Assembly: GCA_903847415.1 (NCBI GenBank)
Contig: CAINDR010000021.1
Coordinates: 1 to 52,800 of the forward strand
DNA: 52,800 bases
Source of the DNA: Candidatus Falkowbacteria bacterium
GTDB lineage: Bacteria; Patescibacteriota; Patescibacteriia; Patescibacteriales; UBA12465
Direction: 5' to 3'
The notes beneath the pieces were generated by a model. It had not been told where the DNA came from. It did no database searches and worked only from the letters and a program-made list of their open reading frames with translations. Both the position numbers and the translations under genes were made by a program. Of the stretch, positions 3,273 to 43,112 are shown in pieces. How positions within the stretch are numbered: the stretch's first letter is position 1; every line of letters starts with the position of its first letter.

Positions 3273-3869
3273 ATGAAAAAAGATAATCAAACTAAATCGC
3301 CGATTAATGTTGGTGAGGATTTAAAACCTAGTCAGACTCTTAGTATTGTTTGGAAAAGTTTTTTACCAAAAAGTAAAATTCTTGATTTGGGTTGTGGGGC
3401 AGGAGTCGACTCTCTATTTTTAGCACAAAATAATTTTTTAGTAACCGCAGTTGATCATTCCGCACCAGCAATACGTGAGTTAAAAAAATTTGACTACAAA
3501 AATTTAGAGGTGATTCTTGATGATATAAGAAGTTTTTCTATCACTAAATCTTCTTATGATGTCGTTATTTGTCGTAATGTTTTAAATTTTATAGACAAAA
3601 AAGATGCAAATAAAAAGATTGAGGAAATTATAACTAACATTTCCAAAGGGTCATATGTGATTATTGAGGTATTCACTAATAACGATCCCAGTTTTTTAGG
3701 AGAGAATCGATTTGCTTGTTACTTTGAAGAACAAGAACTTCTTAAAATTTTTAGTAGTTTTAAGATTTTATATTACCTTGAAAACATGATTTTAGACCAA
3801 GGGCACCCTGGATTTCCTGCGCCACATCGTCATGGTGTGGCTAGAATTATTGCTCAAAAATTAAATTAA
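3273..3869 (+). CDS. class I SAM-dependent methyltransferase (TehB-like)
   Basis: ILDLGCGAG motif I, VTAVD, and C-terminal PHRHGVARIIAQK. Confidence 0.85.
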   Translation: MKKDNQTKSPINVGEDLKPSQTLSIVWKSFLPKSKILDLGCGAGVDSLFLAQNNFLVTAVDHSAPAIRELKKFDYKNLEVILDDIRSFSITKSSYDVVICRNVLNFIDKKDANKKIEEIITNISKGSYVIIEVFTNNDPSFLGENRFACYFEEQELLKIFSSFKILYYLENMILDQGHPGFPAPHRHGVARIIAQKLN

Positions 3870-3968
3870 GTTAAATAAACATCAAAAAATAAATAAAAAA
3901 TTTAATACTGATCTTGTATCAATTGAGGATATTAAAAGTCAGATTATTGTTGAAATTTTAAAAAATAT

Positions 3969-4430
3969 ATGAACAACATTAGCTTGGGCGTAAGAGCTTT
4001 AATTAAAACTGATAAAGGTTTAATTATGGTCGAGCATAATGAGGAAAAAAATGGAGAAATTTTAATTTTTCCTGGTGGCGGCATGGAGTCTGGTGAAAAT
4101 ATTTTCAAGGCTATTGAAAGAGAGGTAAAAGAAGAAACTAATTTAATAGTTAAGTCTGAAAAAATTATCTATATTCGTGAAACTTTTTATAATGGGGATA
4201 GTGGTATCGAATTCTATATTATCTGTTCTTTGATTGGTGGAAATTTATTACTAGGAGTTGATCCAGAGTTAGAAGATAATAAACAAATTTTACAAGGAGT
4301 TCGTGAAGTTAATTGGAATGAGATAAAAAATAATAAGTGGTATCCAGAAGAATTGCATGATCGTTTGGAGGGTGATTTAAAAAATAATATTGATACTATT
4401 CTGTATTTAGGGATTAAAGATTTTAGTTAA
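3969..4430 (+). CDS. Nudix hydrolase
   Basis: Nudix box PGGGMESGENIFKAIEREVKEETNL. Confidence 0.9.
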   Translation: MNNISLGVRALIKTDKGLIMVEHNEEKNGEILIFPGGGMESGENIFKAIEREVKEETNLIVKSEKIIYIRETFYNGDSGIEFYIICSLIGGNLLLGVDPELEDNKQILQGVREVNWNEIKNNKWYPEELHDRLEGDLKNNIDTILYLGIKDFS

Positions 4431-4470
4431 ACTCATTAATATTTTTCAATTTTTCAGGGGGATTTTTTTA

Positions 4471-4866
4471 TCACTCTAGTGGAAGACCTGGTCTTCTATT
4501 AGATTCCTGTTTAAAAGCCCACCTTATACCTTTGCCTTGAAGGGGTTCGTCTGGAAATCTAGCAATCACATGAAGGTGCGCATGATTGACGTTTTGTCCT
4601 GCATCAACGCCAATATTCCAACCAATATTATAACCCGAGGGATTATGTTTATCTAAAATAACTTTGACTTCTGGCAGCAGCTCTTTAATGGCTAACCATT
4701 CCTCGGTATTAATATCAAAAGGAGTTAGAGTATGTCGATAAGTGATAATCATTCCAGCGTGCCTGATAATTGGGTCAATACTCTCCACAAAATAACAGAG
4801 GTTATTCTTAGCTAAAATCTCTCCTTTAAGTGTTTCATTTTCCAGGCAAAAGTTGCATTTCTGTAT
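4471..4866 (-). CDS. HIT family nucleotide hydrolase; true start probably near 4866 (ATA), not 4788
   Basis: GQNVNHAHLHVI triad; upstream in-frame IQKCNFCLENE carries the usual N-terminal CxxC. Confidence 0.8.
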   Translation of the reverse strand: MQKCNFCLENETLKGEILAKNNLCYFVESIDPIIRHAGMIITYRHTLTPFDINTEEWLAIKELLPEVKVILDKHNPSGYNIGWNIGVDAGQNVNHAHLHVIARFPDEPLQGKGIRWAFKQESNRRPGLPLE

Positions 4867-14507: not shown

Positions 14508-14608
14508 ATTTTAGGAATCGAAACTTTAGAGAAGATGTAGGGAGGTATACCTAAACTAAATGATGATAACTTTGGTAATTTTCTTTAATTATTTTTTTTG
14601 ACTTTGCT
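14508..14608 (+). repeat. direct repeat copy 2, right flank of island 2
   Basis: Re-encodes argS terminal ILGIETLEKM*; 100/101 match to 10044-10144. Confidence 0.97.
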
Positions 14609-14943
14609 GTTTCATTGCCACCCTCTAAATCATTTTTATGATAAACCAATAAAACATTAATCAATTTTTTCTCGTTATGCATGGCAACAATACAGCGGTT
14701 CCCAGATCCATGGCGAGATTTTTTTGTTCCTGCGATACTAAATTCAGTTTTTATAATTTTAATATCAAAATCTTTTGCAATTATTTCGGCAATAGATTTT
14801 TCTAAGATAACGTCAAAACTTTGAAACTCTCTCACGAGAGCTTCTATTGTAATATCCCAGGATCGTCCATATTTTTTAGCAAATTTTTTGATGAAGTGGC
14901 GATGGGCGTATTCTTCGAAATTTACTGAATATTTAGTAAACAT
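14551..14943 (-). CDS. putative toxin (RelE/HigB-like fold) paired with Panacea antitoxin
   Basis: Overlaps antitoxin stop; GSGNRCIV...INVLLVYHKND resembles RelE-superfamily C-terminal strands. Confidence 0.55.
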   Translation of the reverse strand: MFTKYSVNFEEYAHRHFIKKFAKKYGRSWDITIEALVREFQSFDVILEKSIAEIIAKDFDIKIIKTEFSIAGTKKSRHGSGNRCIVAMHNEKKLINVLLVYHKNDLEGGNETAKSKKIIKENYQSYHHLV

Positions 14944-15622
14944 GGTTTGGGTCCTCTTGGGTTATTAGACTATAAGGGATTATTTCATTATCTTCGCAGA
15001 TTGCATATGGTAGTTGGTCATGAGTAAATTTGACGATATCTTGAGTTCTTTTTCCGCGCCATTTTAAGGAGATATCTTTAATCATTTTTAGCTCCACTGC
15101 GTTTAGTTCTGATAACTTTTCCCGTTCACCGGAACGAGTCTGAGAAATAAAAAAGACACCATCCTTTGTGGTTTTATCTACCTCGATAATTCCAGCCTCA
15201 AAAAGTTCTTCAATGGCGCGGAAATAATTATCTGGCACTGGACCGTATTGAATTTTTCGATAAGGCATTCCGCTCATACTTTCTAGATGTTCATAGAACC
15301 AAGCAAAATCAGCCAAGTAGAGCATTTTTGCTAACTTGGTTTTTGGTATTTTGCTATGAGAGTCTTTTTCTGATCGCAAATAGGCTAAAATCATTTGCTT
15401 GTATTTTTTGTAGTTTGGTTTTAGCCCGCCACGCATTTCTTCTAAAGAAATGCCAAAAAGATCCGCTAGTTTTATCGCCTCAAATAGGCTTAGTTCGTTT
15501 TTTCCTTGTTCAAAGCCAATATAGGAAGATCGGGAAATGCCAATTTTTTCGGCGGTTTCTAGCTGAGAAAGACCTCTTTTTAGTCTTAGTTCTTTGATAA
15601 ACTTGTAATAATCTTTAGTCAT
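14933..15622 (-). CDS. XRE-HTH + Panacea (DUF4065/SocA) antitoxin
   Basis: HTH IKELRLKRGLSQLETAEKIGISRSSY; Panacea motifs KTKLAKMLYLAD, YGPVP, FTH; ATG 15622 preferred. Confidence 0.85.
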   Translation of the reverse strand: MTKDYYKFIKELRLKRGLSQLETAEKIGISRSSYIGFEQGKNELSLFEAIKLADLFGISLEEMRGGLKPNYKKYKQMILAYLRSEKDSHSKIPKTKLAKMLYLADFAWFYEHLESMSGMPYRKIQYGPVPDNYFRAIEELFEAGIIEVDKTTKDGVFFISQTRSGEREKLSELNAVELKMIKDISLKWRGKRTQDIVKFTHDQLPYAICEDNEIIPYSLITQEDPNHVY

Positions 15623-15685
15623 ATTACTAAGATTATAAGGCAATAATGTTTAAAAGTCAAACAAAGCTTGTCTATATTTTAGACA

Positions 15686-16564
15686 TTATAATTTTAAAGT
15701 AGTCACTAATAATTTCTGATAATCTTGCCAACGCTTTTCTTCTTCCTGGAGAGATTTCTTAGCCCAAGAGACGAGAAAATTATTCTTTTCTAAAACTGAT
15801 ATTTTTTTTGCTTTGGTAATTGCTAAAGCTAAAGTTTCAATTAAATAATTGTGAAAGTGGGGATAGATATTTTGGAAAATTTCTATTTCCAGGTCAGAGA
15901 GATTGTCTTTTTTATTTTTAAATTTTTTCATTAAACTGACTGTGACTGCGGTGGGAATATTATTTTTTAAATCATCATGCCAATCATATAAGTCATCAGC
16001 AAGTTGCCGACAATTAAGAAATAGCACGAGAAAATCCCAAAACTTCTTTTGCTCTGTTGAGTTAATGTCGCGATTTTCTAAAAATAAAAAGACTGAAATA
16101 TAGAGCCCCAAAGATTTTTGGTGGCCCTTTTTTAAAAGAGAATCTTCATCAAGTGTTTGCCAATAATTTGGATTCTTTTTTAGTTCACTAACTCGTGAAA
16201 ATTCGGTTTGATTGGCAATTTCCATTATTAAAAAAGCTTTGTCGACCAATTTACTTTTTCCGCCCAGAACTTTGGCGCTTTCAAATAACAAAAGATTAGC
16301 AATAGGAAGTTCGGCCAAACTGGCGCCACCATCCATTATGTGATCATAAATAGTATAGGATCCCCAGAGTTTCAAATTGGCTTGTTTCCAGGATTTCTTG
16401 TCGGCTTTTGGTAAGGGAGAAAAAGCCTTTTTGTCTCGCCAAGATTTTTCTAGACTAGTAATGATTTCTACGGAAGCAAGACCTTCGGGGCTTTTGAGAA
16501 TTTTATCATAAATTGGTTTCACCGTTTTTTGAATAGAAAATAAAGATAATTTTTGTGTTTTCAT
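15686..16564 (-). CDS. class I isoprenoid-synthase-fold prenyltransferase (ComQ-like candidate)
   Basis: Two Asp-rich motifs YDHIMD and QLADDLYDWHDD; helical composition; ATGA overlap with kinase. Confidence 0.7.
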   Translation of the reverse strand: MKTQKLSLFSIQKTVKPIYDKILKSPEGLASVEIITSLEKSWRDKKAFSPLPKADKKSWKQANLKLWGSYTIYDHIMDGGASLAELPIANLLLFESAKVLGGKSKLVDKAFLIMEIANQTEFSRVSELKKNPNYWQTLDEDSLLKKGHQKSLGLYISVFLFLENRDINSTEQKKFWDFLVLFLNCRQLADDLYDWHDDLKNNIPTAVTVSLMKKFKNKKDNLSDLEIEIFQNIYPHFHNYLIETLALAITKAKKISVLEKNNFLVSWAKKSLQEEEKRWQDYQKLLVTTLKL

Positions 16565-17973
16565 ATCTCGTGTTTGAAATCGATGGGCAAGATAATTGAA
16601 AATAAGCAGCCACCTTCTTTGTTATTTTTTGCCTCTATTTTTCCGCGGAAATCTTGCTCTACTAAATGTTGAATTGAAGAAAGTCCCAACCCCAATCCCT
16701 TTCCTTGTTTTGTACTAAAAAATGGAGTAAAGATTTTTTCAAAATTTTCTGAGCTAATTCCTGGGCCGTTGTCCTTAATGGTTAATTTAATTTCTTGGTT
16801 ATTTTGGTAGTTTAATTTGATACTTATTTTTTTGTTTAATGATGAATTTTCACCAAGAGCATCAAGAGCGTTAGTGATTAAATTCATAATTATCTGGCTA
16901 AATTTTAAAGGGTCACCAAAAATTTTAATATCTTCTTCGTAGCGAAACTTCAGTAGCACTTTCTCTCGAATGGCTCGGTGGTTTAAAAGACTAATCATTC
17001 CCTTGACTTCTTGGTTAATCGAAAATTGACGACGACACTCTTCTTTCTGAAGTTGTTTTTTAACACTGATTACCAATACTTCCATTCTTTTTGCTGCTTC
17101 CACTGCTTGTTCAACTTGATAGGAAGTTTTTTGATATTGTTTATCTCGAGAAAGTTGTTCCAGATTCAAAGAAACGGCAGTAAGAGGGTTGATTAGGTCA
17201 TGAAAAATTCCTGCGGAAATTCGACCAAATTCGGCAAAACGATAAAGTTGGCTAATTTTTTCCATTTGCATTTTTTGTAATTGCTCAGTTCTTTTTTTAA
17301 CCGTTATTTCGAGATTATCTCTTTCTATTTTGAGCGCCTGTTCAGAATTAAGAGCTTTTCTAAGGGAATTTTCAATTTCTCGGTTAGCTAGCCAGGAAAG
17401 AGTAGCCATAATCGAAAGAGTAATAATAATTGGGATGGCGTCATAAATTGTCACCATTTCTGTTGCCCAATAGGTATTTGGAGTGATAATTTGATGGCCC
17501 TGAAGATATCCAAGGGTCGCAAGATAGAGGCTAATAAATAGAGTTGTAATCAGAGAAAAACGAGTACTAATTAAAATTCCAGCGCTTAAGATGGTGAAGG
17601 CATAAAGTAAAAGACTTTGAGGTAAATCTATTCCCCAGTGAAAAGAGAGATATAAATTTGGAATAAAGAAAATACTTAAAAAAAGGAGAGAAGCGATTTT
17701 AATCTTTTGTTTTCTAGAAAGATAATGAGCAAAAACGAAAACAGCACCCATTAAAATAAAGACCGCAGGTTGGAAACCGCGGTCTTCACCAGAAATAATA
17801 TCGATAACTTCACGAATAAAGGATAATAACAAAATTGTGGCCATTAAAATCTCTGAAGAAATTAAGAGAATGTTAAGAATAAATTCTTTTCTTTTTTGCT
17901 CCTCATTTTCACTTTGAGCTTCGATTAGGTGGTGATAAATTTTTTGACTTAATTTTTTTAAAATTTTTTTCAT
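16561..17973 (-). CDS. membrane sensor histidine kinase (about 6 TM, HisKA + HATPase_c)
   Basis: H-box FHDLINPL, N-box NLITNALDA, DNGPGI, FTPFFSTK, GLGLGL; six hydrophobic N-terminal segments. Confidence 0.95.
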   Translation of the reverse strand: MKKILKKLSQKIYHHLIEAQSENEEQKRKEFILNILLISSEILMATILLLSFIREVIDIISGEDRGFQPAVFILMGAVFVFAHYLSRKQKIKIASLLFLSIFFIPNLYLSFHWGIDLPQSLLLYAFTILSAGILISTRFSLITTLFISLYLATLGYLQGHQIITPNTYWATEMVTIYDAIPIIITLSIMATLSWLANREIENSLRKALNSEQALKIERDNLEITVKKRTEQLQKMQMEKISQLYRFAEFGRISAGIFHDLINPLTAVSLNLEQLSRDKQYQKTSYQVEQAVEAAKRMEVLVISVKKQLQKEECRRQFSINQEVKGMISLLNHRAIREKVLLKFRYEEDIKIFGDPLKFSQIIMNLITNALDALGENSSLNKKISIKLNYQNNQEIKLTIKDNGPGISSENFEKIFTPFFSTKQGKGLGLGLSSIQHLVEQDFRGKIEAKNNKEGGCLFSIILPIDFKHEI

Positions 17974-17976
17974 ATT

Positions 17977-18111
17977 TTAAAGCCAAGGTTTTCCAGGGGT
18001 AAAAATACTAATGATATTTGCCATGGTGCCCCCAATTGCCAGAAGACCAGTTTTTTTAATTAGATTTTTTTTGTTTAATTTTTCAATTTTTTTTGTTTTT
18101 TTGTTTTTCAT
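17977..18111 (-). CDS. unannotated 44-aa peptide, putative pheromone precursor (ComX-like)
   Basis: Manual translation MKNKKTKKIEKLNKKNLIKKTGLLAIGGTMANIISIFTPGKPWL*; fills the gap between regulator (30 nt) and kinase (3 nt). Confidence 0.75.
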   Translation of the reverse strand: MKNKKTKKIEKLNKKNLIKKTGLLAIGGTMANIISIFTPGKPWL

Positions 18112-18141
18112 TTTTTTGATTTGTTTGCTTGGTGAAGATTT

Positions 18142-18816
18142 TTATGGTTTTGGAATTTCCAACTTATATCCACGACCGGGCAAAGTGCTAATTATTTTTT
18201 GTTTTTTGTCGTTTAATTTTTTTCTTAATTTTAGAATATGCATTTCGATTGTGTTTGAAAAAGGATCACCATTGATGTCCCAAACTCCCTCCAATAATTT
18301 GGTTCGAGATAAAACTTTCCCCTGATGCTTGACCATGAATTCTAGTAGAGCATATTCTTTTCCAGTTAAGACGACAGTTTTTCCTTTTTTGGTGGCGGAA
18401 AAATTTTCGGGATCAAGGGTGATTTGTCCGCAAGAAAGATTTTTTTCTTCTCTAATAACTGGTCGCCTACCAAGAGCTTGGATGCGAGCTGATAGTTCGG
18501 TCATTGAAAAAGGTTTGGTGAGATAGTCATCTGCTCCAGATTCAAAACTTGCTACTTTGTCATCCAATTCCGTTCGAACGGTGAGCATGATGATTGGCGT
18601 CCAAATTTTTTCTGATCGAATTTCTTTGATTACTTCTAAGCCATTTATCCCTGGCAATAAATAATCCATAATGATAACATCGTAGTCATTGGTTCGAGCC
18701 AGAAAAGAACCTTCTTCGCCATTGCGCGCTGAATCGACAACATGATTTTCCGCTTTTAAAGCTTGAACTAAAAAGGCATTAAGAGCCACCTCATCTTCAA
18801 CAAGCAAAATTTTCAT
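18142..18816 (-). CDS. OmpR/PhoB-family response regulator
   Basis: LLVEDE, IIMDYLLPG, GADDYLTKPF, winged-helix LTGKEYALL...LRKKL...GRGYKL. Confidence 0.95.
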   Translation of the reverse strand: MKILLVEDEVALNAFLVQALKAENHVVDSARNGEEGSFLARTNDYDVIIMDYLLPGINGLEVIKEIRSEKIWTPIIMLTVRTELDDKVASFESGADDYLTKPFSMTELSARIQALGRRPVIREEKNLSCGQITLDPENFSATKKGKTVVLTGKEYALLEFMVKHQGKVLSRTKLLEGVWDINGDPFSNTIEMHILKLRKKLNDKKQKIISTLPGRGYKLEIPKP

Positions 18817-18862
18817 AAAAGAAAAATTAAAGATTAAAATTGTTTTTCAAAAATACTTTTTT

Positions 18863-18898
18863 ATTTTATCACAAGCCAGATAAATAACCGATAAATAA
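18863..18898 (-). promoter_or_regulatory. promoter with tandem OmpR/PhoB-type operator repeats
   Basis: Minus strand TTATTTATC-GG-TTATTTATC (11-bp period), 10 nt spacer, then TAAAAT with extended TG. Confidence 0.6.
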
Positions 18899-18929
18899 AA
18901 TTTTTCATCTGGGTAAAACTTTTTTTCGG

Positions 18930-18958
18930 TTGTTTTTCCTTGATTTACCTGCTATAAT
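18930..18958 (+). promoter_or_regulatory. mrdA promoter
   Basis: TTGTTT-N17-TATAAT with extended TG, 9 nt before the ATG. Confidence 0.55.
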
Positions 18959-18967
18959 CCAAGTATT

Positions 18968-21085
18968 ATGCATAAAAAATGGGCATTTTCCAATAAAGCA
19001 TTATTAGAAAAAGAAAGCAGTCAGGAAAATCCTTTTATTGTGAAAGAGGGTGGTTTTGGTGCTCTCAAGGACTCTTTCTACTACACCGACTGGACCGAAC
19101 ACTCTTTTATTGCTGATCACACCAAGAGCTCAGAAGCAGTTGGCCTCACTTTTGATTTTCGCCGTTTATTTTGGTTGCGTTTAATTTTAGTTTTTTTTAT
19201 TGGAATTCTAATTTTTCGATCAATTTTTCTTCAAATGATTAAAGGTGATTACTATTATGGTTTATCCGAAGGTAATCGTTTGCGCCTAGAAATAATTGAA
19301 CCCAAAAGAGGGATTATTTATGATCGAAATTTGATTCCCCTAGTGCACAACTCTGCCAACTTTGTTCTATATGTAATTCCTCACGATTTACCAAAAGATG
19401 AGGAATCTCGTGATGCTATTTTGCGTCGGATGGTTAACATTCTGGAGATGAATAAAATTCAGAATATCCAAGGCCAGAAAAGTGCTTCCGCCAATTTAAT
19501 TGAAGATAGCCCGCTTTTTTTTCAACTGAAAGATCAGTTGGCAGAAATCAAAATGTCTTCTTTTAAGGCTTATTCTCCTTTTTTCATTGCCGATAATATT
19601 GAGTATGATCAGGCCTTGCGTTTATATCTAGAGTGCAATGGTGAGCCCGGAGTTTTTCTTTCAAATAAAATTCGCCGAACCTATGAGATTTCTGCTCTTG
19701 ATTATAGTTCATCACTATCTCATTTACTTGGTTACACTGGTAAAATCAGTGAGAAAGAGCTCAAGGAACAGCCAGGAAAATACACGCCAATTGATTATCT
19801 CGGCAAATCTGGATTAGAGTATATTTGGGAAAAAGAGTTAAAAGGGATTCCAGGAAGAAAAAGCTCAGAAGTAGATGCAATGGGGAAGCTTAGCAAGGTG
19901 GTCAGCGAAACTGTTGCGGTTGATGGTCTAAATTTAGAATTAGCGATTGATAAAGGTCTGCAACAGCAAAGCGAAATGGTTTTGCGTCGTTATTTAGAAA
20001 AATTAAATCTTAGTTCTGGTTCGATCGTTGCCCTCGATCCTCGCAATGGTGAAGTTTTAGCAATGGTTTCTTTGCCAGCCTATGATAACAATTTGTTTGC
20101 CAAAGGTATTAAGAAAGAGGATTATCAAAAATTTTTAGAAGATCCGGCGATGCCTCTTTTTAATCGCTCAATCTCAGGAGAATATCCTTCGGGCTCAACG
20201 GTAAAAATTGTGGTGGCAACCGCAGCTTTAGAGGAAAATATAATTTCTGAAAGCACCAGCGTCGTTTCATCCGGTGGTTTAACTATCGGTGTTTGGACTT
20301 TTCCAGATTGGAAACCTGGTGGTCATGGAGTGGTTGATGTTCGGAAGGCAATTGCTAATTCGGTAAATACCTTTTTCTACTATATCGGAGGTGGTTATCA
20401 GGGATTTGTTGGTTTAGGCGTTGATCGCCTGGAAAAATATCTTAAAATATTTGGCCTCAATGAAAAAACCGGCATTGACCTTACTGGAGAGCGATCTGGT
20501 TTTGTGCCGAATGCAGACTGGAAAAAACAAACCAAAAAAGAGTCGTGGTATATTGGTGATACCTATCATTTAGCGATTGGGCAGGGAGATTTATTAGTGA
20601 CTCCGATTCAGGTTGCTAATTATACGGCCGCTTTGGCTAATGGTGGTACATTATATCAACCAAGGCTAGTTAAAGCGATTTTAAATGATCAAAATCAGTT
20701 AGTGCGCAGTATTCCGGTGAAAATTATTCGTAGTAATCTGGCTAGTCCTAGTAATTTAGAAATCGTTCGGGAGGGAATGAGGGAGACTGTTGTAAATGGT
20801 AGTGCTCGCAGTCTTCAATCAGTTCCAGTGCCAGTTGCTGGAAAAACAGGAACAGCCCAATGGAGTAGCAAAAAAGATCCGCACGCTTGGTTCTCTGGTT
20901 TTGCACCTTACGACAACCCGCAAATAGCAATTGCTGTCTTAGTTGAAGAGGGGCGAGAAGGGAGCTCGGTTGCTACGCCGATTGCCAAAGAAATTTTAAC
21001 TTGGTATTTTGGTGGTCGCGGTGAAGTAAAACCAGAAGTTATTAATGTCACTCCTTTGATTGCTACTAGTACAATCATTGATTAA
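18968..21085 (+). CDS. mrdA: penicillin-binding protein 2
   Basis: TM anchor, PKRGIIYDRN, GSTVK (SxxK), SVN (SxN), KTGTAQ. Confidence 0.93.
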   Translation: MHKKWAFSNKALLEKESSQENPFIVKEGGFGALKDSFYYTDWTEHSFIADHTKSSEAVGLTFDFRRLFWLRLILVFFIGILIFRSIFLQMIKGDYYYGLSEGNRLRLEIIEPKRGIIYDRNLIPLVHNSANFVLYVIPHDLPKDEESRDAILRRMVNILEMNKIQNIQGQKSASANLIEDSPLFFQLKDQLAEIKMSSFKAYSPFFIADNIEYDQALRLYLECNGEPGVFLSNKIRRTYEISALDYSSSLSHLLGYTGKISEKELKEQPGKYTPIDYLGKSGLEYIWEKELKGIPGRKSSEVDAMGKLSKVVSETVAVDGLNLELAIDKGLQQQSEMVLRRYLEKLNLSSGSIVALDPRNGEVLAMVSLPAYDNNLFAKGIKKEDYQKFLEDPAMPLFNRSISGEYPSGSTVKIVVATAALEENIISESTSVVSSGGLTIGVWTFPDWKPGGHGVVDVRKAIANSVNTFFYYIGGGYQGFVGLGVDRLEKYLKIFGLNEKTGIDLTGERSGFVPNADWKKQTKKESWYIGDTYHLAIGQGDLLVTPIQVANYTAALANGGTLYQPRLVKAILNDQNQLVRSIPVKIIRSNLASPSNLEIVREGMRETVVNGSARSLQSVPVPVAGKTGTAQWSSKKDPHAWFSGFAPYDNPQIAIAVLVEEGREGSSVATPIAKEILTWYFGGRGEVKPEVINVTPLIATSTIID

Positions 21086-21102
21086 CACTTAAATTAATTT
21101 TT

Positions 21103-21615
21103 ATGCCTCTTTGGCTTCATTTATTAACCCATTTTTTATTAGCAGTTCTGGTTGGTCTGATTTTTTGGCGCGCTTCAAAATTGTTTTGGCTCTCATTAAT
21201 AGCCGCAATAATTGGTGGTTTTTTAATTGATGTTGACCACTTAATTGAATACTGGATTGTTTTTCATCGGTTTTCCTGGTTTGGTTTTTTAAATGGTTGG
21301 CAATTTTTGTGGAGTGGAAAAAATTATTTAATTTTTCATGCTTGGGAATATTTACCAATTTTATTATTAGGAGCTTTTTTATTGCGTCGTCGTCAAAAAA
21401 TAGCAGTATTTTTGGCAGTTTTGGCAGCGGCTGGTTTTATTCATTTAGTTACTGATTGCTTTATTAACCAATATTCTCCAAAATTCTATTCTCTTAGCTA
21501 TCGCTTTGTTTATCATTTTTCAGCTCAAGATTTGTTGCCAGCGAGCAACTTGGAGTTAAATAACTATTATTATCAAAAATGGTTTGGCGAGATGGAGCAG
21601 GAGATAAATAAATGA
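21103..21615 (+). CDS. membrane protein, putative metal-dependent hydrolase (YdjM-like)
   Basis: Hydrophobic with HLLTH, IDVDH, FHAWE, HLVTD motifs. Confidence 0.65.
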   Translation: MPLWLHLLTHFLLAVLVGLIFWRASKLFWLSLIAAIIGGFLIDVDHLIEYWIVFHRFSWFGFLNGWQFLWSGKNYLIFHAWEYLPILLLGAFLLRRRQKIAVFLAVLAAAGFIHLVTDCFINQYSPKFYSLSYRFVYHFSAQDLLPASNLELNNYYYQKWFGEMEQEINK

Positions 21616-21733: not shown

Positions 21734-22783
21734 ATGAATAATAAAAACAGTAGAATTAAAGAGTTTATTTATAAACATGTATTTGAGCATCCGTCGGATA
21801 TTGCTCTGCTTGTTTCTAATGAATTTGGTTTTTCCCGCCAGAATGCTTTGCGTTATATTTCTAGAGAAGTAAGAGATGGGAAAATTATCAAAGTGGGCAG
21901 AACAAATTCAACCCGTTATTTTGAAGTTGGTGGCAAGAAGATTGAGTTTAATTGTGAGATAAATAAAAATCTTGCAGAAGATCAGGTTTGGTCAAAATAC
22001 ATTAAACCGATGACTTCTGGTTTTAATGATAATATCAAAAGAATTATTGCCTATGGTTTTACGGAAATTTATAACAATGCAATTGATCATTCAGGAGGAA
22101 CAATCATCAATACAAACGTTGAGATAAAAAATAATAACATAGAAATAAGTATTATTGATAACGGAATAGGGATATTTAAAAAAATTCACCAGGCACTCAA
22201 ATTAGATTCTGTTAGAGAGGCGATTCTTCATCTTTCTAAAGGAAAATTCACCACTGACCCTTCAAGGCATTCGGGGGAGGGAATATTCTTTACCTCAAGA
22301 ATATTCACGAAGTTTTCTATTCTTTCTGGTGACCTATTCTATAGTTTTGAGAATCAAGAATGGCTTCTATCTCATGAAAAAGAGGAAAGATTCGGTGACG
22401 GCACTTTAATCAAAATGGTTCTAAACCTCGACGCAACCCACACGTCAAAAGATATTATGGATAAATATGCCGACGTGGATTTTGATATTGGTTTTTGGAA
22501 AACTATTGTTGCGGTTTCATTGAGTTCCAGTCCCGATGACCCACATGTATCAAGGTCGCAAGCAAAAAGACTAATGATGGGATTGGATAAATTTAAAACT
22601 GTTGTCTTGGACTTCAAGAACGTATCTTCAGTTGGACAGGCCTTTGTTGATGAGATATTTAGAGTTTTTAGAAATAATTTTCCTGAAATTTCCATTGAGT
22701 ACATAAATGCCAATCAGGAAGTAGATGAAATGATTAAAAGAGGGTTGACACAAAATAAATTAAGTGGTAATTTTGGGACATAA
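21734..22783 (+). CDS. HTH + GHKL ATPase + STAS-like (DUF4325) protein
   Basis: TEIYNNAIDHS, DNGIGI, HSGEGIFF; C-terminal SRSQAKRL...VLDFKNV..VGQAFVDEIFRVF. Confidence 0.8.
   Translation: MNNKNSRIKEFIYKHVFEHPSDIALLVSNEFGFSRQNALRYISREVRDGKIIKVGRTNSTRYFEVGGKKIEFNCEINKNLAEDQVWSKYIKPMTSGFNDNIKRIIAYGFTEIYNNAIDHSGGTIINTNVEIKNNNIEISIIDNGIGIFKKIHQALKLDSVREAILHLSKGKFTTDPSRHSGEGIFFTSRIFTKFSILSGDLFYSFENQEWLLSHEKEERFGDGTLIKMVLNLDATHTSKDIMDKYADVDFDIGFWKTIVAVSLSSSPDDPHVSRSQAKRLMMGLDKFKTVVLDFKNVSSVGQAFVDEIFRVFRNNFPEISIEYINANQEVDEMIKRGLTQNKLSGNFGT
22745..22773 (+). promoter_or_regulatory. promoter for 22916 gene
   Basis: TTGACA-N17-TAATTT with extended TG. Confidence 0.5.
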
Positions 22784-42320: not shown

Positions 42321-43112
42321 TTAAAATAGTAGACTAATTAATATTAAGAATCCAATCACAATCCGATACCAGCCAAAAGCCTGAAAGTCGTTCTTTTGAA
42401 TATATTTGATTAAGAATTTAATGCCGATAATTGCTGTGATAAATGAGGTTATAAAACCAACCATCCAGAGAGTCAACTGTTCTCCTGATAAGGCGCTAGG
42501 ATTTTTATAAATATCCAAAACTGTTGCCGCAAGCATCGTTGGAATTGCCAGTAAAAAAGAAAACTCAACAATCGTTTTTCGGTTAATTCCCAGACCCAAA
42601 CCGCCAATAATTGTTGCTGCAGATCTTGAGACACCAGGAATCATTGCTAAGGATTGAGCGACACCAAGAATAACCGCTTGGCGATAACTTATTTTTTCCA
42701 GTTCCATTGTTTCGGTTTTTGCATCAATTATTTTACTCTTTTTTGCGTGCCATTTTTCAAAGAAAATCAGTAATATTCCGCCGATTAGTAAGGATAAGGC
42801 AATTACCAATAAGCTTTCTAGTAAAAAGTTTTTAATAATTTTGTACATCACAAGACCGATAATAGCCGTTGGAATAAAGGCAGCTGCCAGTTTCCAAATA
42901 ATGGAAAAATTTTGCCAAAGACGTTTCCAATATAGAACAACAACTGCCAAAATTGCTCCAAGCTGAATTGAGATTTCAAAAGTCTTGAGAAACTCTGATG
43001 AAGGAATGCCCAGTATTTTTCCGGTAATAATTAGATGGGCGGTTGAAGAAATTGGTAGAAATTCTGTGATACCTTCAACGATTCCGAGAATAATGGATTG
43101 AATAATAGTCAT
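42321..43112 (-). CDS. uppP: undecaprenyl-diphosphate phosphatase
   Basis: GIVEGITEFLPISSTAH, PGVSRSAAT, FSFLLAIP. Confidence 0.96.
   Translation of the reverse strand: MTIIQSIILGIVEGITEFLPISSTAHLIITGKILGIPSSEFLKTFEISIQLGAILAVVVLYWKRLWQNFSIIWKLAAAFIPTAIIGLVMYKIIKNFLLESLLVIALSLLIGGILLIFFEKWHAKKSKIIDAKTETMELEKISYRQAVILGVAQSLAMIPGVSRSAATIIGGLGLGINRKTIVEFSFLLAIPTMLAATVLDIYKNPSALSGEQLTLWMVGFITSFITAIIGIKFLIKYIQKNDFQAFGWYRIVIGFLILISLLF

Follow-up and report, generated by a model that had tools for sequence, protein, structure and literature searches.

A short open reading frame (ORF) squeezed between the genes of a response regulator (RR) and a histidine kinase (HK) in a Candidatus Falkowbacteria genome raises the question of whether it is a gene at all and, if so, what kind of molecule it encodes. 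The ORF, referred to as X, codes for 44 amino acids at 17977..18111 on the minus strand (stop codon included) of a 52,800-nucleotide stretch (GenBank contig CAINDR010000021.1, positions 1 to 52,800, assembly GCA_903847415.1), which we call the window; the genome as a whole comprises 0.93 Mb on 64 contigs and is 95.6% complete. An earlier reading of the letters without database searches, here termed the sequence-only reading, had taken X for the precursor of a peptide released from a basic leader at a double-glycine site. Following up on this proposal, we find X to be a conserved gene that is linked to RR, HK and an enzyme gene directly behind the kinase, referred to as Q, across the phylum Patescibacteria, and we lean towards X encoding the precursor of a tryptophan (Trp)-modified peptide signal.

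Gene X and its conservation

The ORF and its translation were recovered exactly as the sequence-only reading had given them, and its remark that X ends 3 nucleotides (nt) ahead of the kinase start also holds, as the sequence places the TAA of X at 17977-17979, followed by 3 bases and the kinase ATG at 17971-17973. The compositional asymmetry it described was reproduced as well, with a G+C content of 0.17 for the Lys-rich, very AT-rich 5' half (18050-18149) and of 0.32, i.e. coding level, for the 3' half (17950-18049). The product consists of a Lys-rich variable leader, a moderately hydrophobic middle and the C-terminal core Pro-Gly-Lys-Pro-Trp-Leu (PGKPWL), encoded at 17980..17997 (minus strand). 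No Shine-Dalgarno motif precedes X, which is normal here, since just one of the 37 long ORFs in the window carries one. Neither Pfam nor NCBIfam holds a family for X or for 35 diverse homologues of it, and a direct peptide search of a collection of 5.8 billion proteins returned nothing but the exact 44-residue product as the window's own entry. Gene callers mostly overlook the gene, as that collection contains only nine relatives, the sole given name being 'hypothetical protein'. An Rfam search of 15000-21500 gave no match at E up to 0.1, no terminator-like site was found on the operon strand inside the gene cassette, and promoter and terminator scans yielded nothing decisive. Among 17,917 small ORFs of the genome, one other ends in Gly-x-Pro-Trp; lying inside a 608-aa gene in another frame, it was rejected as a second copy of X.

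Using all 44 residues as tblastn query, we detected a counterpart of X in six of the seven other genomes of the same genus, in each case between the orthologous RR and HK genes, and just two chance-level matches in 53 genomes outside the genus. Aligned across the genus, X ends invariantly in PGKPWL, its last six residues, with a leader that varies in length and sequence and a hydrophobic middle that varies too. The last six codons carry amino-acid-preserving changes only, and pairwise synonymous differences range from 0.17 to 0.93 over the last 24 codons. X is under purifying selection, with synonymous change saturated, and the earlier expectation of a selected coding gene with a conserved C-terminal core was borne out, the core being invariant despite synonymous change. 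That X is a real gene is, in our view, virtually certain.

The X and kinase ORFs share a frame in the window and are separated by one stop, for which reason we considered X as a readthrough product or split N-terminal extension of the kinase; this was rejected, as spacing and frame differ in relatives. Within the genus the spacer between X and the kinase measures 3, 11, 11, 11, 16, 24 or 37 nt, and in the other loci it is out of frame or contains a stop. Because the spacers vary in this way, the shared frame in the window is incidental and X is no cut-off kinase N-terminus.

The sole same-genus genome without a peptide match, G005, is informative in its own right. Its RR and HK genes are intact beside the gene of a PBP2-type transpeptidase (79% and 69% identity), and the gap between them (L170 4835-4981) holds a remnant of X that reads the core and then a stop, with two internal stops and no start. 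Behind the kinase, where Q would be expected, the gene is missing, and the rest of this 88%-complete genome yielded no copy either. A disrupted ORF or a lost Trp in close relatives had been named by the sequence-only reading as evidence that would speak against the gene: the disruption occurs once, in G005, whose remnant still reads the core, and the Trp core is invariant in the six counterparts. Since Q is absent together with X, the broken ORF supports a link between the two rather than refuting the gene, and G005 could represent an 'orphan receptor' state.

Beyond the genus we examined 97 loci, five of which had no kinase match and eight of which had the kinase N-terminus off the contig, leaving 84 loci, 7 found with the peptide itself and 77 through Q alone. 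As candidates for X we accepted small ORFs on the operon strand that end between 450 nt upstream and 90 nt downstream of the kinase start. Such an ORF with a Trp in its last six residues is present at 80 of the 84 loci, and one with Pro-Trp in the last 12 residues at 83 of the 84, as opposed to 4 of 84 on the opposite strand. The small-ORF scan of RR-HK intergenic regions that had been suggested as a check came out positive, also among the 77 loci picked by Q alone (76 with a Pro-Trp small ORF). The single miss, L062, lies on a contig that offers no more than 200 nt of upstream sequence. The Trp is located 2 (13 loci), 3 (58), 4 (7) or 6-8 residues (5) from the end of X and is never the last residue in any of the 83. 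NPGTPWR, with D, S, N or Y behind it, is the most frequent core, the genus of the window having PGKPWL instead. Only Met1, Pro and Trp are invariant in the 35 diverse homologues, so the Trp singled out by the sequence-only reading is indeed the key conserved residue. The 11 loci that represent other families of the phylum all show the order RR-X-HK-Q, six with Pro-Trp tails and five with Tyr-x-Tyr-Trp tails, and records of Saccharibacteria, Saccharimonadales and Parcubacteria show the same arrangement with a Trp near the X end. RR, X, HK and Q are linked across the phylum.

The remainder of the precursor is far more plastic. Many leaders carry an amphipathic N-terminal motif (Met, two variable residues, two hydrophobic ones, two variable ones, hydrophobic-Leu, Thr/Ser, Asn/Asp, three variable ones, Arg), which is replaced by a Lys-rich stretch in the window genus. 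In 34 of the 83 homologues there is no hydrophobic segment (best 13-residue Kyte-Doolittle window below 1.0), and some are acidic throughout; because of these, membrane anchoring is not the conserved function of X. At L081, L083 and L092 neither a kinase nor a regulator was matched and a Pro-Trp-tailed small ORF stands directly before Q, and in L177, a Saccharibacteria record, X likewise directly precedes Q with no kinase between them. Through these kinase-less loci, the joint loss in G005 and the non-membrane homologues, X is tied to Q and not to the kinase. The two genes come and go together, and X is probably the partner of Q.

Enzyme Q and its isoprenoid context

Q is encoded at 15686..16564 on the minus strand, with its ATG overlapping the kinase stop by 4 nt, and its 292 residues are predicted to adopt a trans-isoprenyl diphosphate synthase (trans-IPPS) fold. 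The polyprenyl synthetase family PF00348 gave no match in Q at E up to 10, its relatives reaching sub-threshold values of 0.018 and 0.07, and a search of solved structures with an alignment of Q and its close relatives returned chance-level matches only. The AlphaFold2 model of Q is all-helical, with a predicted local distance difference test (pLDDT) score of 80.5 and a predicted template-modelling score of 0.81. In a Foldseek search of this model against the PDB, all 35 entries listed (ranks to 50) were trans-prenyl diphosphate synthases, the best template-modelling score being 0.62. An exhaustive VIA-align search gave a best Z of 15.8 with a root-mean-square deviation of 3.7 over 254 of the 292 residues and IPPS-type enzymes at all ranks from 1 to 37, to which the prenyltransferase MoeN5 at Z 14.0 and the indole prenyltransferase Ord1 at Z 13.5 belong.

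A cross-genus alignment of 14 sequences (A3) revealed W67, D74, D78, P87, A89, N90, E121, S151, Q187, D190, D191, D194 and D198 as invariant. The first Asp-rich motif reads DDxxD in most genera and D-H-x-x-D in the window genus, and the second is DDxxD everywhere. A search of solved structures with the A3 profile reached an octaprenyl diphosphate synthase at an E of 0.3, the alignment covering the first Asp-rich motif of that enzyme. In the ESM Atlas the neighbours of Q bear automatic names, either class 1 isoprenoid biosynthesis enzyme or prenyltransferase family protein, at scores of 0.94-0.95. The structural model together with the alignment shows Q to possess a predicted trans-IPPS fold and two Asp-rich motifs. 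A prediction of the complex of Q (alignment A2) with X (alignment A1) scored 0.24, 0.38 and 0.01 against a mark of 0.32 and was used neither way.

Q was found in 94 of the 316 genomes of the order, the family of the window contributing 83 of its 147 genomes, and in 13 of 400 further genomes sampled from the phylum. With an E cut-off of 1e-3 the enzyme family comprises 1,647 of 1.84 billion cluster representatives, and with one of 1e-30 it comprises 1,093; in the collection of 5.8 billion proteins only 11 relatives are similar to Q in length, the one name among them being 'hypothetical protein' of a Patescibacteria bacterium. Enzyme genes 66-70% identical occur on four contigs of metagenome-assembled genomes titled 'uncultured Gammaproteobacteria bacterium' (L172-L175), labels that look doubtful because the gene belongs to this Patescibacteria family. 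The full set of X, HK and long Q is also present in L181, titled Candidatus Pristimantibacillus sp., whose flanks resemble the Parcubacteria record L180, which reflects either mis-binning or transfer.

Most members of the Q family are about 640-660 residues long and carry an additional N-terminal domain (for example L157 4390-6348, as well as L025, L062, L158-L165, L178 and L180-L182). The extra domain (alignment A4) is predicted to have a class II terpene cyclase fold (model pLDDT 82.4), and Foldseek places it next to squalene-hopene cyclase-like proteins, drimenol synthase and MstE with an E of 1e-10 and template-modelling scores of about 0.7. It contains an invariant Asp-x-Asp-Asp-Thr stretch, which we take to resemble the catalytic motif of class II cyclases. 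The window's family has lost this cyclase-like domain.

The isoprenoid context of Q has one locus with an enzyme of its own: L166 encodes a canonical polyprenyl synthetase between RR and X (3683-4735, minus strand; PF00348, E 3.6e-57), and in the genome it belongs to (G527) UppS is present and a GHMP kinase was not found. The genome of the window contains MraY and the undecaprenyl-diphosphatase BacA (42321..43112, minus strand), and the organism seems to use but not to make polyprenyl carriers. Since this genome yielded no source of prenyl diphosphate, a prenyl donor for Q would have to be scavenged or recycled polyprenyl diphosphate. A sub-threshold match to the cis-prenyltransferase family PF01255 at 16771-17154 (minus strand; E 0.0014, 21.1 bits) lies in the dimerisation and ATPase region of the kinase and was judged spurious.

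A proposed Trp-modified signal and its rivals

The four cassette genes all lie on the minus strand within 15686-18816, with gaps of 3 and 30 nt and one overlap of 4 nt. The first encodes RR, a 224-aa OmpR-type regulator with Response_reg and Trans_reg_C domains (18142..18816, minus strand), and X is followed by HK (16561..17973, minus strand), a 470-residue kinase with six predicted transmembrane helices (residues 35-192), a HisKA domain (PF00512) just under the Pfam cut-off and HATPase_c. The transmembrane segments of HK are joined by short loops, so that its predicted sensor consists of transmembrane helices only.

Enzymes that join a prenyl group to a peptide Trp are known from other bacteria. 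ComQ of Bacillus prenylates an internal Trp of ComX, comQXPA being four adjacent genes on the same strand (PMC4008528), and PalQ of Paenibacillus alvei, a member of the isoprene synthase superfamily earlier annotated as terpene synthase, prenylates the C-terminal Trp of PalX and is encoded beside a histidine kinase (Miyata, Ito and Fujinami 2023, PMC10853753). In Sphaerobacter thermophilus, the IPPS-fold enzyme StheQ stands beside the small ORF of StheX (bioRxiv 10.64898/2026.08.29.745113). The terpenoid-fold enzyme gene Q, a clue that had escaped the sequence-only reading, points to a Trp modification of the ComX/PalX type rather than to leader cleavage of the bacteriocin type.

Taken as a whole mechanism, we hold it to be somewhat better than an even bet that X is the precursor of a Trp-modified peptide signal similar to ComX, PalX or StheX, which is sensed by the adjacent kinase with its six transmembrane helices. 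Q would use its two Asp-rich motifs to bind an allylic prenyl diphosphate and would attach the prenyl moiety to the indole ring of the Trp conserved in X, as ComQ, PalQ and StheQ do. The variable leader would then be removed, and a short lipidated C-terminal peptide, comprising roughly the block around PGKPWL, would exit the cell and be perceived by the neighbouring kinase inside its membrane domain; the kinase in turn would phosphorylate the OmpR-type regulator. Prenylation, cleavage and export, the role of the kinase as receptor and the prenyl donor are all steps that we infer; six transmembrane helices with short loops fit a lipidated ligand and prove nothing.

Several points weigh against this proposal. 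The sequence link of Q to the IPPS is weak: Pfam and NCBIfam hold no family for Q, Pfam gives no match at E up to 10, and the Foldseek E values are about 1e-2. An IPPS fold alone does not define the reaction that Q carries out. Q keeps a full second DDxxD, as chain-elongating synthases do and unlike ComQ and StheQ, and its comparison with PalQ derives from residue numbers in a paper. In the window's genome no PF00348, IspH, GHMP kinase or UppS was found above cut-off, and PF00348 occurs in just 12 of 148 genomes of the family. A protease or exporter for X was not identified, and kinase and regulator belong to subfamilies other than those of ComP and ComA. On the side of expression, 10-13% of the sampled words occur in four metatranscriptome runs from a single study, which contribute only short contigs with a depth of 2-6 on parts of the cassette; as these libraries may contain DNA, neither the covered parts nor one 151-nt contig that spans 17856-18006 (kinase start and last ten X codons, one mismatch) shows transcription, and the uncovered parts of the cassette carry no meaning.

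The same missing prenyl diphosphate source would favour a different chemistry, in which X is a signal or a ribosomally synthesised and post-translationally modified peptide tied to Q and Q does something other than prenylate Trp, be it by acting on another residue, by using another donor or by making a terpenoid that acts together with the unmodified peptide. This would also agree with both DDxxD motifs being kept as in synthases, rather than the pseudo-second motif of ComQ and StheQ, and with the class II cyclase-like domain of the long forms, whose chemistry may exceed a simple transfer. We nevertheless consider it unlikely, because Pro-Trp is the sole invariant feature of X besides Met1, because the three characterised enzymes of the IPPS superfamily beside small Trp peptides all prenylate Trp, and because the Gln that is proposed to bind the indole in PalQ has a match in a conserved Gln of Q ahead of the second motif. 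That X is a membrane-anchored accessory subunit or modulator of the kinase, with its N-terminus inside and its C-terminus outside and without ever being released, appears more improbable still. X of the window genus, in which a Lys-rich N-terminus leads into some 15 moderately hydrophobic residues, looks the part, and it always stands just before a kinase whose sensor is made of transmembrane helices only; yet the 34 of 83 homologues that have no hydrophobic segment, the homologues that are acidic throughout, the loci L081, L083, L092 and L177 in which X directly precedes Q, and the decay of X beside the intact kinase of G005 all speak against a kinase subunit.

This decay beside a retained kinase is equally at odds with X being a regulatory upstream ORF whose conserved, arrest-type nascent peptide tunes translation of the next gene. 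Such a role would explain why X lies immediately upstream of that gene (3 nt in the window), be it the kinase or, in the kinase-less loci, Q, and why the conserved part coincides with the last few codons. The distance from stop to start, however, spans 3 to 37 nt within the genus alone, the Trp takes any place from 2 to 8 residues before the end and the tail behind it varies, and in the longer forms the N-terminal amphipathic motif is too distant to share the ribosome tunnel with the C-terminus, so that we give this explanation a very small chance. Precursors of the double-glycine class are short, with an N-terminal leader and a C-terminal active part, are processed by C39 peptidase-ABC exporters and are often encoded beside a two-component system. 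The sequence-only reading had accordingly proposed a cut after LLAIGG that would release a 16-residue peptide, and the window copy does read Gly-Gly there. Within the genus this site reads IGG, IGA, AGS, SGA or IGQ, in other genera it is gone, and the hydrophobic stretch around it is absent from 34 of 83 homologues. Its observation that the window holds no C39 peptidase extends to the whole 95.6%-complete genome, in which PF03412 had no match, the same search being positive in 7 of 14 control genomes. Cleavage of this kind can practically be dismissed.

Returning to the Trp-modified signal, its possible reach may be wider than the window. Because the enzyme fuses cyclase-like and IPPS-like domains in most lineages, the prenyl group on Trp may there be cyclised, and if most such genomes, the window's included, are without isoprenoid synthesis, as it seems, the signal could arise only from host-derived prenyl diphosphate. 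Patescibacteria, Saccharibacteria and Parcubacteria included, might widely carry so far undescribed terpenoid-modified Trp-peptide signals, with the prenyl group perhaps cyclised in the long forms, which are made from host-derived prenyl diphosphate and report host contact or metabolic state via the kinase. We regard this extension as conceivable and rather doubtful; if true, it would amount to a peptide-terpenoid hybrid pheromone without known counterpart. Signalling between cells or between host and symbiont is almost unexplored in the ultra-small, mostly uncultured Patescibacteria, full-text literature searches found no description of such a system in this phylum, and the cassette is compact and phylum-wide with a large enzyme family that has no Pfam model. 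Should the proposed chemistry hold, it would provide new peptide-lipidating, possibly cyclising, enzymes and raise the question of the donor source in organisms without isoprenoid synthesis.

Divergent from RR lies the gene of the PBP2-type transpeptidase (18968..21085, plus strand), a conserved neighbour whose membership in the cassette is not shown. The regions upstream of Q in relatives nearly all read PBP2, divergent RR, gap, HK and Q, and nearly every related locus of the order preserves the divergent pair of PBP2 and RR; given this divergent PBP2, the two-component system may control cell-wall growth. At three loci a gene for an S-adenosylmethionine methyltransferase is inserted (L023 5809-6507, minus strand; L024 2622-3311, plus strand; L062 1635-2351, plus strand), called by Pfam on the L023 copy and by ORF size and position on the other two, which may represent an extra tailoring enzyme. 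Directly downstream of the cassette, 14551-15643 (minus strand) encodes a 236-aa protein with HTH_3 and SocA/Panacea antitoxin domains that overlaps a family-less 130-aa ORF; the pair resembles a toxin-antitoxin module and has no match in the G005 locus, the one same-genus locus searched. On the other side of the transpeptidase gene, 21734-22783 (plus strand) encodes a 349-aa protein with HATPase_c and a STAS-like DUF4325.

Comparison with known systems

Of the systems that the cassette may be compared with, the double-glycine class is set apart by its cleavage motif, unconserved in X, and by its C39 domain, not found in the genome. One parallel is ComQXPA, for which the 2014 census by Dogsa et al. 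records loci only in Firmicutes and uses a match to PF00348 as criterion for the modifying enzyme (PMC4008528). Both systems combine an IPPS-type enzyme, a small variable Trp precursor, a kinase with several transmembrane helices and a response regulator in four adjacent genes on the same strand, and the Trp of the precursor, which lies within the last 5-10 residues in ComX, is found 2-8 residues from the end in all 83 homologues of X. They differ in gene order, Q-X-P-A there and RR-X-HK-Q here, in the kinase, of the HisKA_3 type (PF07730) there and with HisKA (PF00512) and HATPase_c here, and in the regulator, which is of the GerE (PF00196)/LuxR type there and OmpR-type with Trans_reg_C here. 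Furthermore, Q has no PF00348 match and a full second DDxxD, where ComQ has a pseudo-motif, X does not match the ComX family PF05952, nor does any of the 35 homologues at E up to 1, and the host phylum is Patescibacteria instead of Firmicutes. The protease and exit route of ComX are unknown as well, ComQ and ComX being sufficient in E. coli (PMC10853753; PMC4008528).

A similar picture emerges for PalP-PalX-PalQ, where a histidine kinase likewise goes with a small precursor that has a conserved Trp at its C-terminal end, and where the enzyme, of the isoprene synthase superfamily, had escaped annotation as prenyltransferase (PMC10853753). The Asp pairs of PalQ are D89/D93 and D200/D204, and its conserved Q197 was proposed to hold the indole NH (PMC10853753); judged from these published residue numbers, Q shows the same spacing within its two Asp pairs, D74/D78 and D190/D194, and between the second pair and a conserved Gln three residues ahead of it, Q187. 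PalX differs from X in having a nitrile-hydratase-type leader and the Trp as last residue, whereas X matches no Pfam or NCBIfam family and continues for 1-7 residues after its Trp, and for the Pal cluster the accessible text lists no response regulator (PMC10853753). In StheQ the second motif is a pseudo-motif and there is one Mg site only; StheX comprises 69 residues, with no kinase linkage described in the part of the preprint at hand. StheX carries its Trp second from the C-terminus, as X in the window does, and stems from outside the Firmicutes. If the chemistry holds, Trp prenylation of signal peptides would reach the candidate phyla radiation from Firmicutes and Chloroflexi. The cassette resembles ComQXPA in its proposed working but falls outside that family when judged by the criteria set for it: it brings a precursor family, an enzyme family, two-component subfamilies and a phylum that are new to such systems, and most of its enzymes are fused to a cyclase-like domain.

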